Assembly: GCF_024700885.2 (NCBI RefSeq)
Contig: NZ_CP117016.1
Source of the DNA: Escherichia coli
Lineage (GTDB): Bacteria; Pseudomonadota; Gammaproteobacteria; Enterobacterales; Enterobacteriaceae
DNA length: 64,000 bases
Reading direction: 5' to 3' (one strand)
This document shows, piece by piece, positions 56,998 through 57,375 of this stretch. A program made the position numbers and the translations under genes. How positions within the stretch are numbered: the first letter of the stretch is position 1; each line of letters opens with the position of its first letter. A model generated the notes under the pieces. It saw only the letters and a list, made by a program, of their open reading frames with translations, had not been told where the DNA came from and made no database searches.

Positions 56998-57375
56998 GTG
57001 AAAACATTACCCGACACACACGTACGGGAGGCATCGCGCTGCCCGTCTCCCGTCACCATCTGGCAGACACTGCTGTCCCGACTACTGGGCCAGCATTACG
57101 GCCTTACGCTGAATGACACACCGTTCGCCGATGAACGTGTGATTGAGCAGCATATTGAAGCTGGCATTTCACTGTGTGATGCGGTGAACTTTCTCGTTGA
57201 AAAATACGCACTGGTACGTACCGACCAGCCGGGATTCAGCGCCTGTACCCGCTCTCAGTTAATAAACAGTATTGATATTCTCCGGGCTCGCAGGGCAACC
57301 GGCCTGATGACCCGCGATAACTACAGAACGGTAAATAACATTACCCAGGGGAAGCATCCGGAGGCGAAACAATGA
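56998..57375 (+). CDS. cbtA: CbtA (YeeV) cytoskeleton-targeting toxin, GTG start
   Basis: 125 aa ...[77 protein letters not shown]... Confidence 0.8.

Follow-up and report, generated by a model that had tools for sequence, protein, structure and literature searches.

A rare GTG start codon in a cbtA-family toxin gene of Escherichia coli is inherited on a haplotype with a truncated cbeA antitoxin

The window, i.e., the whole stretch of 64,000 nucleotides of E. coli DNA analyzed here, carries a cbtA-family toxin gene (56998-57375, + strand) that opens with GTG where its relatives carry ATG. This start codon is genuine, it is inherited, and all copies found lie on a haplotype in which the neighboring antitoxin gene is interrupted by a nonsense codon. 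We consider it probable, with some reserve, that the GTG is a tolerated and nearly neutral variant tied to the antitoxin stop by descent, since the toxin family is weakly expressed, K-12 comes to no harm from loss of the antitoxins and cross-protection by paralogous antitoxins is possible.

The toxin gene encodes 125 amino acids (ORF list, PGAP and Pfam), and its product has 100% of its residues in common with RefSeq WP_016231184.1. Direct reading of bases 56998-57000 (+ strand) gave GTG, with G at 56998 where relatives carry A, followed by AAA, ACA, TTA, CCC and GAC (K T L P D), as the original prediction had stated; PGAP agrees, and the reading frame closes with TGA at 57373-57375. No in-frame ATG, GTG or TTG was found 5' of this codon back to a TAA stop at 56821-56823, and an upstream in-frame ATG with a ribosome-binding site, which would have contradicted the prediction, is absent over this span. 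The protein matched Pfam PF06755 (CbtA_toxin) with 208.2 bits (cut-off 25) over profile positions 1-112 of 112, aligned from residue 1, and every one of the toxin homologues starts at the position equivalent to 56998. As the alignment begins at residue 1 and there is no start further upstream, the GTG at 56998 represents the sole start that gives the full-length toxin. In a comparison of 7,401 bases, the window locus did not differ from that of E. coli MLI114 (NZ_CP117013.1; from human stool in Mali), and at the MLI114 locus PGAP calls the same GTG start, with the product named "TA system toxin CbtA family protein". A tblastn search found no second TA copy within the window, and no solved structure of the toxin was found.

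At the reference yeeV start, with which the prediction had proposed a comparison, K-12 carries ATG (cbtA/yeeV) where the window carries GTG. The homologous codon is also ATG in K-12 ypjF and ykfI, and in YDC107, IAI39 and strain 2/0. Because the three K-12 genes have ATG, the GTG is, by this comparison, the derived state, which arose by an A-to-G transition at 56998. Canonical cbtA genes have their ATG at a conserved CAGT-ATG-AAAAC site; the window toxin does not. Alleles of the start codon were counted by megablast of a 32-nt query centered on it against 5,426 complete E. coli genomes; as the search used an exact word of 28 bases, a 32-mer can match only if it has the queried base at 56998. 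The ATG 32-mer was found at 8,053 places in 4,411 of these genomes, the GTG 32-mer at one place (MLI114) and the ACG 32-mer at none; the ATA 32-mer, a low-complexity query that was possibly part-masked, also gave 0 matches. JGI metagenome contigs yielded 0 matches to the GTG 32-mer. The closest relatives of the locus were 26 records with 99.5-99.6% identity over 1.4 kb.

The segment 56930-57011, which comprises the 3' part of the spacer and the first toxin codons, is identical between paralog types that are otherwise divergent; the same types show approx. 1 difference per 10 sites in neighboring coding sequence and approx. 25 differences in the 60 nt after 57011. This conservation suggests a putative translational or regulatory element, and the only variant within the segment is the start-codon G.

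On the basis of its sequence, its gene order and the island in which it lies, the locus can be assigned to the type IV toxin-antitoxin family CbtA/CbeA (YeeV/YeeU). The K-12 toxin inhibits FtsZ and MreB, and its antitoxin counteracts it without binding the toxin (PMC5371832); the window toxin, which is 88.8% identical to K-12 CbtA, would be expected to act in the same way. As in K-12 CP4-44, a radC-like gene, a DUF987 gene, the antitoxin gene, a spacer of 88-89 nt, the toxin gene and a yeeW-like gene follow each other, and the upstream region with the ribosome-binding site is nearly identical in the two. Unlike K-12 CP4-44, however, the window has GTG instead of ATG as well as a TAA at codon 43 of the antitoxin, the N-terminus of its toxin differs (the K-12 stretch is PVLPGQAASSR), and an extra pseudogene is placed between the DUF987 gene and the antitoxin gene.

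The surroundings are those of a CP4-type island, as judged from PGAP annotation at the MLI114 locus, Pfam matches and comparison with K-12 CP4-44, CP4-57 and CP4-6. The CP4-44-like gene order is DUF932, antirestriction, radC-like JAB, DUF987, the pseudogene, the cbeA/yeeU-family antitoxin, an 89-nt spacer, the toxin, DUF5983 (yeeW-like), DUF957 and DUF4942. The spacer between cbeA and cbtA (56909-56997, + strand) does not differ from that of the IAI39-type paralog over 56930-56997; in K-12 the corresponding spacer has 88 nt (PMC5371832). The ATG of the DUF5983 gene (57372-57860, + strand; ORF list, Pfam PF25638 and PF19419, PGAP) overlaps the toxin TGA by 4 nt. The extra pseudogene at 55846-56529, annotated by PGAP as "antitoxin of toxin-antitoxin stability system", is interrupted by a TGA at 55987-55989, and its fragments gave no Pfam match; as the same pseudogene is present in YDC107, which has an ATG toxin start and an intact antitoxin, it predates the stop in cbeA. 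Further downstream, the DUF4942 gene (58166-60170 region) is cut at approx. 58580 by an IS21-family ISEc10 whose istA is frameshifted. The island adjoins a type VI secretion cluster with Tle1/Tli1-EAEC effector/immunity genes (14001-35000; MLI114 859,500-880,504), in which tssK (approx. 31066-32404, - strand) is annotated as frameshifted. Four frameshift calls were present in 50 kb, i.e., tssK, istA, a zinc-ribbon gene and an hha fragment. An Rfam scan of the whole window found no match at the TA locus; its sole match was IS102 RNA (RF00124, 72.5 bits; 44571-44807, + strand), just upstream of the island's Ag43/Cah autotransporter gene.

The neighboring antitoxin is truncated, in line with what had been predicted. 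The cbeA (yeeU-family) pseudogene at 56540-56908 (+ strand) carries TAA at 56666-56668 in place of Tyr43 (translation, Pfam and PGAP, which reports an internal stop), so that its product has 42 amino acids and the window does not hold an intact two-gene module with a whole antitoxin frame. Two matches to Pfam PF06154 (CbeA_antitoxin; 38.7 and 118.7 bits, cut-off 27) flank the stop and cover profile positions 2-25 and 27-100, and with the stop read as Tyr the sequence matched YeeU (PDB 2H28) with E = 1.5e-72. Tyr43 is present in YeeU (PDB 2H28) and in all close relatives.

The origin of the stop was traced by comparing variable sites. YDC107 (O25b:H4; the WP_016231184.1 locus) encodes an identical toxin protein, shares 99.6% of its DNA positions with the window over 1.4 kb and does not differ at all over 56999-58575; unlike the window, it has an ATG start and an intact antitoxin of 122 amino acids, with seven SNPs between 56490 and 56998. 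The SNPs between the window and the nearest ATG allele are located at 56366, 56490, 56576, 56591, 56632, 56668, 56674 and 56998, with none over 56999-58575. Within 56585-56715, the only three sites that separate the YDC107 and IAI39 antitoxin types are 56632, 56668 (the stop) and 56674; the window carries the IAI39-type base at each of them, while its flanks are of the YDC107 type. An identical 81-mer containing the stop is shared by 109 complete-genome records. The IAI39/CE10-type cbeA is itself a pseudogene with TAA at the same codon in this 81-mer, next to an intact cbtA (WP_000854824.1); unlike the window, it is associated with an ATG toxin of the K-12 CbtA type, and its antitoxin also has a change in the start region and an insertion of 1 nt. 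These site patterns indicate that the stop was most likely imported by a gene-conversion tract of 43-131 bp (minimal 56632-56674, maximal 56585-56715, + strand) from a paralogous cbeA that was already a pseudogene.

No complete genome provided a single donor for the whole 151-nt antitoxin patch, and, on this comparison, only 56632-56674 is assignable to an IAI39-type donor. As there is no donor with the whole patch, the variants at 56366, 56490, 56591 and 56998 are private to the haplotype; the one at 56576 may likewise be private, having arisen independently, or may belong to a patchy conversion. Compared to the closest ATG allele, these 4-5 private SNPs cluster in 633 bp (56366-56998), with none in the 980 bp before and none in the approx. 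1,440 bp after. Instead of neutral drift, this cluster could be the result of selection or of sequence taken in from an unsampled donor.

Overall, the GTG together with the codon-43 stop was found in 12 independent samples, i.e., five genome assemblies (MLI114 as well as GCA_900450185.1, GCA_054054525.1, GCA_045607645.1 and GCA_002244465.1) and seven gut metagenomes (ENA ERZ27273291, ERZ28625918, ERZ4560456, ERZ28646433, ERZ28660457, ERZ926737 and ERZ28521513). The sequences in which the GTG was found again (L013, L018, L020, L021, L023-L026 and L029-L032) came from exact-protein look-ups in ENA and NCBI assemblies with the two antitoxin fragments, the toxin and an antisense ORF as queries; the latter, a spurious ORF at 56513-56839 (- strand), served as a marker of the stop haplotype. 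Judging by their record names, the carriers were assembled in more than one way, with a contig polished by polypolish on the one hand and NODE contigs in SPAdes style on the other. Over 3.5 kb, GCA_900450185.1 matches the window at 100% of positions. Between GTG copies there are 20-30 SNPs in the flanks, and the IS insertions also vary, being either an IS110-family element at approx. 58455 or an IS21-family element (PGAP: ISEc10 in MLI114) at approx. 58580. These differences in flanking SNPs and IS elements among carriers show the GTG to be an inherited allele, and the carriers with the IS110-family element represent the same TA haplotype with a different later IS history.

The toxin protein is unchanged in all GTG copies that span the whole gene, with 0-1 substitutions per toxin copy; L013 is a low-coverage contig that ends before the end of the toxin and differs in its 3' part. 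The locus of GCA_002244465.1 (L024; KZ269369.1, 1965-4582) has a second complete module directly 5' of the module with the GTG toxin and the stop antitoxin. The upstream module comprises an ATG toxin and an intact CbeA of 122 amino acids, so that two paralogous modules stand in tandem, and other sequence has replaced what lies upstream of 56490.

The codon-43 stop is present in each of the GTG copies, and 12 of the 14 sampled stop-haplotype sequences carry the GTG, as compared to 0 of the approx. 8,053 other copies. The two exceptions, L027 (ERZ28628278) and L028 (ERZ18534462), combine the stop antitoxin with an ATG toxin start that sits in a tract of another paralog's variants beginning at 56990 (56990 C, 57015 T, 57037 A and others, over the equivalent of 56990-57108 and beyond). 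They are either real recombinants or chimeras of paralogs formed in metagenome assembly; in view of these two metagenome scaffolds, possibly chimeric as they are, a perfect linkage of GTG and stop was dropped. A distance of 330 bp separates the two mutations on their common haplotype, and the stop haplotype apparently has a single origin. With a single origin and such close spacing, linkage by descent accounts for the association between the GTG and the stop.

The original prediction also held that the GTG would lower translation initiation. In reporters, GUG and UUG starts give 10-100% of the AUG level, a tenfold span, and approx. 14% of E. coli genes start with GTG (bioRxiv 10.1101/063800). 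Upstream of the toxin start, a weak Shine-Dalgarno-like AGGA is located 11 nt 5' of the start codon (56983-56986, + strand; best anti-SD duplex -4.3 kcal/mol), in a region that is the same in ATG alleles. Folding predicted an 8-bp hairpin that would bury the start codon (56994-57041, + strand; arms 56994-57001 and 57034-57041), in which G56998 is predicted to pair with C57037, a position at which ATG alleles have an A.C mismatch. The predicted minimum free energy of a 90-nt window was -19.0 kcal/mol with G as compared to -13.2 with A, and in 6 of 7 window sizes the predicted cost of opening positions -15 to +5 was higher with G, by 2.5-5.3 kcal/mol. This hairpin is predicted on thermodynamic grounds and has no covariation to support it. 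Given the reporter range and the predicted tighter hairpin, a lowering of initiation is to be expected, and we infer that the weaker codon, the closed hairpin and the weak Shine-Dalgarno match together probably lower toxin synthesis. Scans of 55500-58300 added nothing usable: promoter-like sites were not enriched (2 as compared to 2.1 in shuffled sequence), and the 5 terminator-like sites (2.1 in shuffled sequence) gave no usable candidate.

Through the same A-to-G change, an out-of-frame start-stop (GTG-TGA; 56996-57001, + strand; read in CAGTGTGAAA) has arisen across the toxin start; it may be regarded as a candidate leader minigene only. Leader minigenes modulate translation of the Txe toxin (PMC8708949). 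As in axe-txe, short features beside the toxin start would set output at the level of translation initiation; axe-txe, on the other hand, is a type II system in which a minigene of two codons was found experimentally to enhance translation, while the effect in the window is predicted only (PMC8708949).

In the sequence of events that we propose, an ancestral ATG would have become GTG by one A-to-G change at 56998 on a haplotype whose cognate antitoxin had already been lost to the codon-43 TAA. The GTG would remain usable, and the unchanged toxin of 125 amino acids would be made, probably at a lower rate, through poorer pairing of GUG with the initiator tRNA and through closure of the A.C mismatch in the 8-bp stem over the start codon, next to a Shine-Dalgarno match that is also weak.

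Several explanations compete with near-neutrality and common descent. A sequencing or assembly fault in MLI114, e.g., mis-polishing with reads from a paralog, would fit the presence of the GTG in only 1 of 5,426 complete genomes and the four genes flagged as frameshifted in the surrounding 50 kb; its probability is nevertheless negligible, as the sequencing-error reading is ruled out by the 11 further independent assemblies and metagenomes with the same G, and as the GTG is present on no paralog in any complete genome and therefore had no source from which to be copied. Compensatory selection, by which an untied toxin became costly after truncation of the antitoxin, so that the ATG-to-GTG change with its hairpin closure was favored and spread with the haplotype, appears possible but doubtful. 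It would explain why the GTG is confined to the stop haplotype (12 of 14 as compared to 0 of approx. 8,053), why a single base change offers two predicted ways of reducing initiation while the toxin protein stays intact in the GTG copies, why the sole start-codon transition seen among more than 8,000 copies is one that can still be used as a start, and why the private SNPs cluster around the TA genes. However, a haplotype of apparently single origin provides only one pair of events, 330 bp apart; the two loci read among the 109 complete-genome records with the stop 81-mer (IAI39 and strain 2/0) keep intact toxins with ATG; and L027 and L028 combine the stop with ATG. In addition, an intact cbeA-cbtA module is placed directly upstream in L024, one of the GTG carriers. 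An early nonsense codon can reduce downstream expression via transcriptional polarity, and the one in cbeA may thus itself lower toxin expression. Data from K-12 also speak against a cost: growth is unaffected when all three antitoxins are deleted, the toxins show low transcription without autoregulation, and each of the three K-12 toxins is neutralised by YafW, by YfjZ and by CbeA (PMC5371832). In MLI114, 5 places match the module and 3 match the antitoxin segment.

A broader scenario of compensatory decay of a type IV TA module, in which import of the stop was followed by one selected change that both weakened the start and closed the hairpin, the toxin being kept at a safe, lowered dose, is likewise judged unlikely. 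The prediction that the GTG was "tolerated or selected" once the antitoxin was truncated is therefore only partly upheld: toleration is well supported, with the GTG confined to the stop haplotype, whereas selection is not demonstrated, as linkage by descent suffices, ATG is kept with the stop elsewhere and loss of the antitoxin is harmless in K-12. Finally, the toxin could be effectively dead, the GTG with its weak, distant Shine-Dalgarno match inside a hairpin being hardly used as a first step in decay of the module. The AGGA at -4.3 kcal/mol and 11 nt from the start, a predicted opening cost of 6.6-11.4 kcal/mol in windows that hold both stem arms, and the state of the island, in which the antitoxin gene is a pseudogene, as are one upstream gene and, downstream, the DUF4942 gene, would be consistent with this. 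It is nonetheless quite improbable, as GTG starts serve approx. 14% of E. coli genes and GUG or UUG gives 10-100% of AUG (bioRxiv 10.1101/063800), the reading frame has no further damage in the 12 GTG samples despite their diverged flanks, and PGAP calls the gene intact. Near-neutrality with linkage by descent thus remains the reading that we favor.

Taken together, the GTG represents an ordinary small allele of a known type IV TA module, the gene and protein of which are already in RefSeq. What is added here is the derived GTG, its linkage to a nonsense codon attributed to gene conversion, its occurrence in at least 12 samples and two predicted effects that would lower initiation. For annotation, the GTG start is genuine and correctly called, and the gene should be neither re-called nor discarded. 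The ATG and GTG alleles, whose toxin genes are the same apart from the start, also form a natural pair in which just one member has a working cognate antitoxin; this pair could be used to gauge the amount of CbtA-family toxin that a cell tolerates. If compensation were true, the locus would illustrate neatly how toxins left without their antitoxin are tamed and not deleted; knowledge of the family would otherwise be unchanged.
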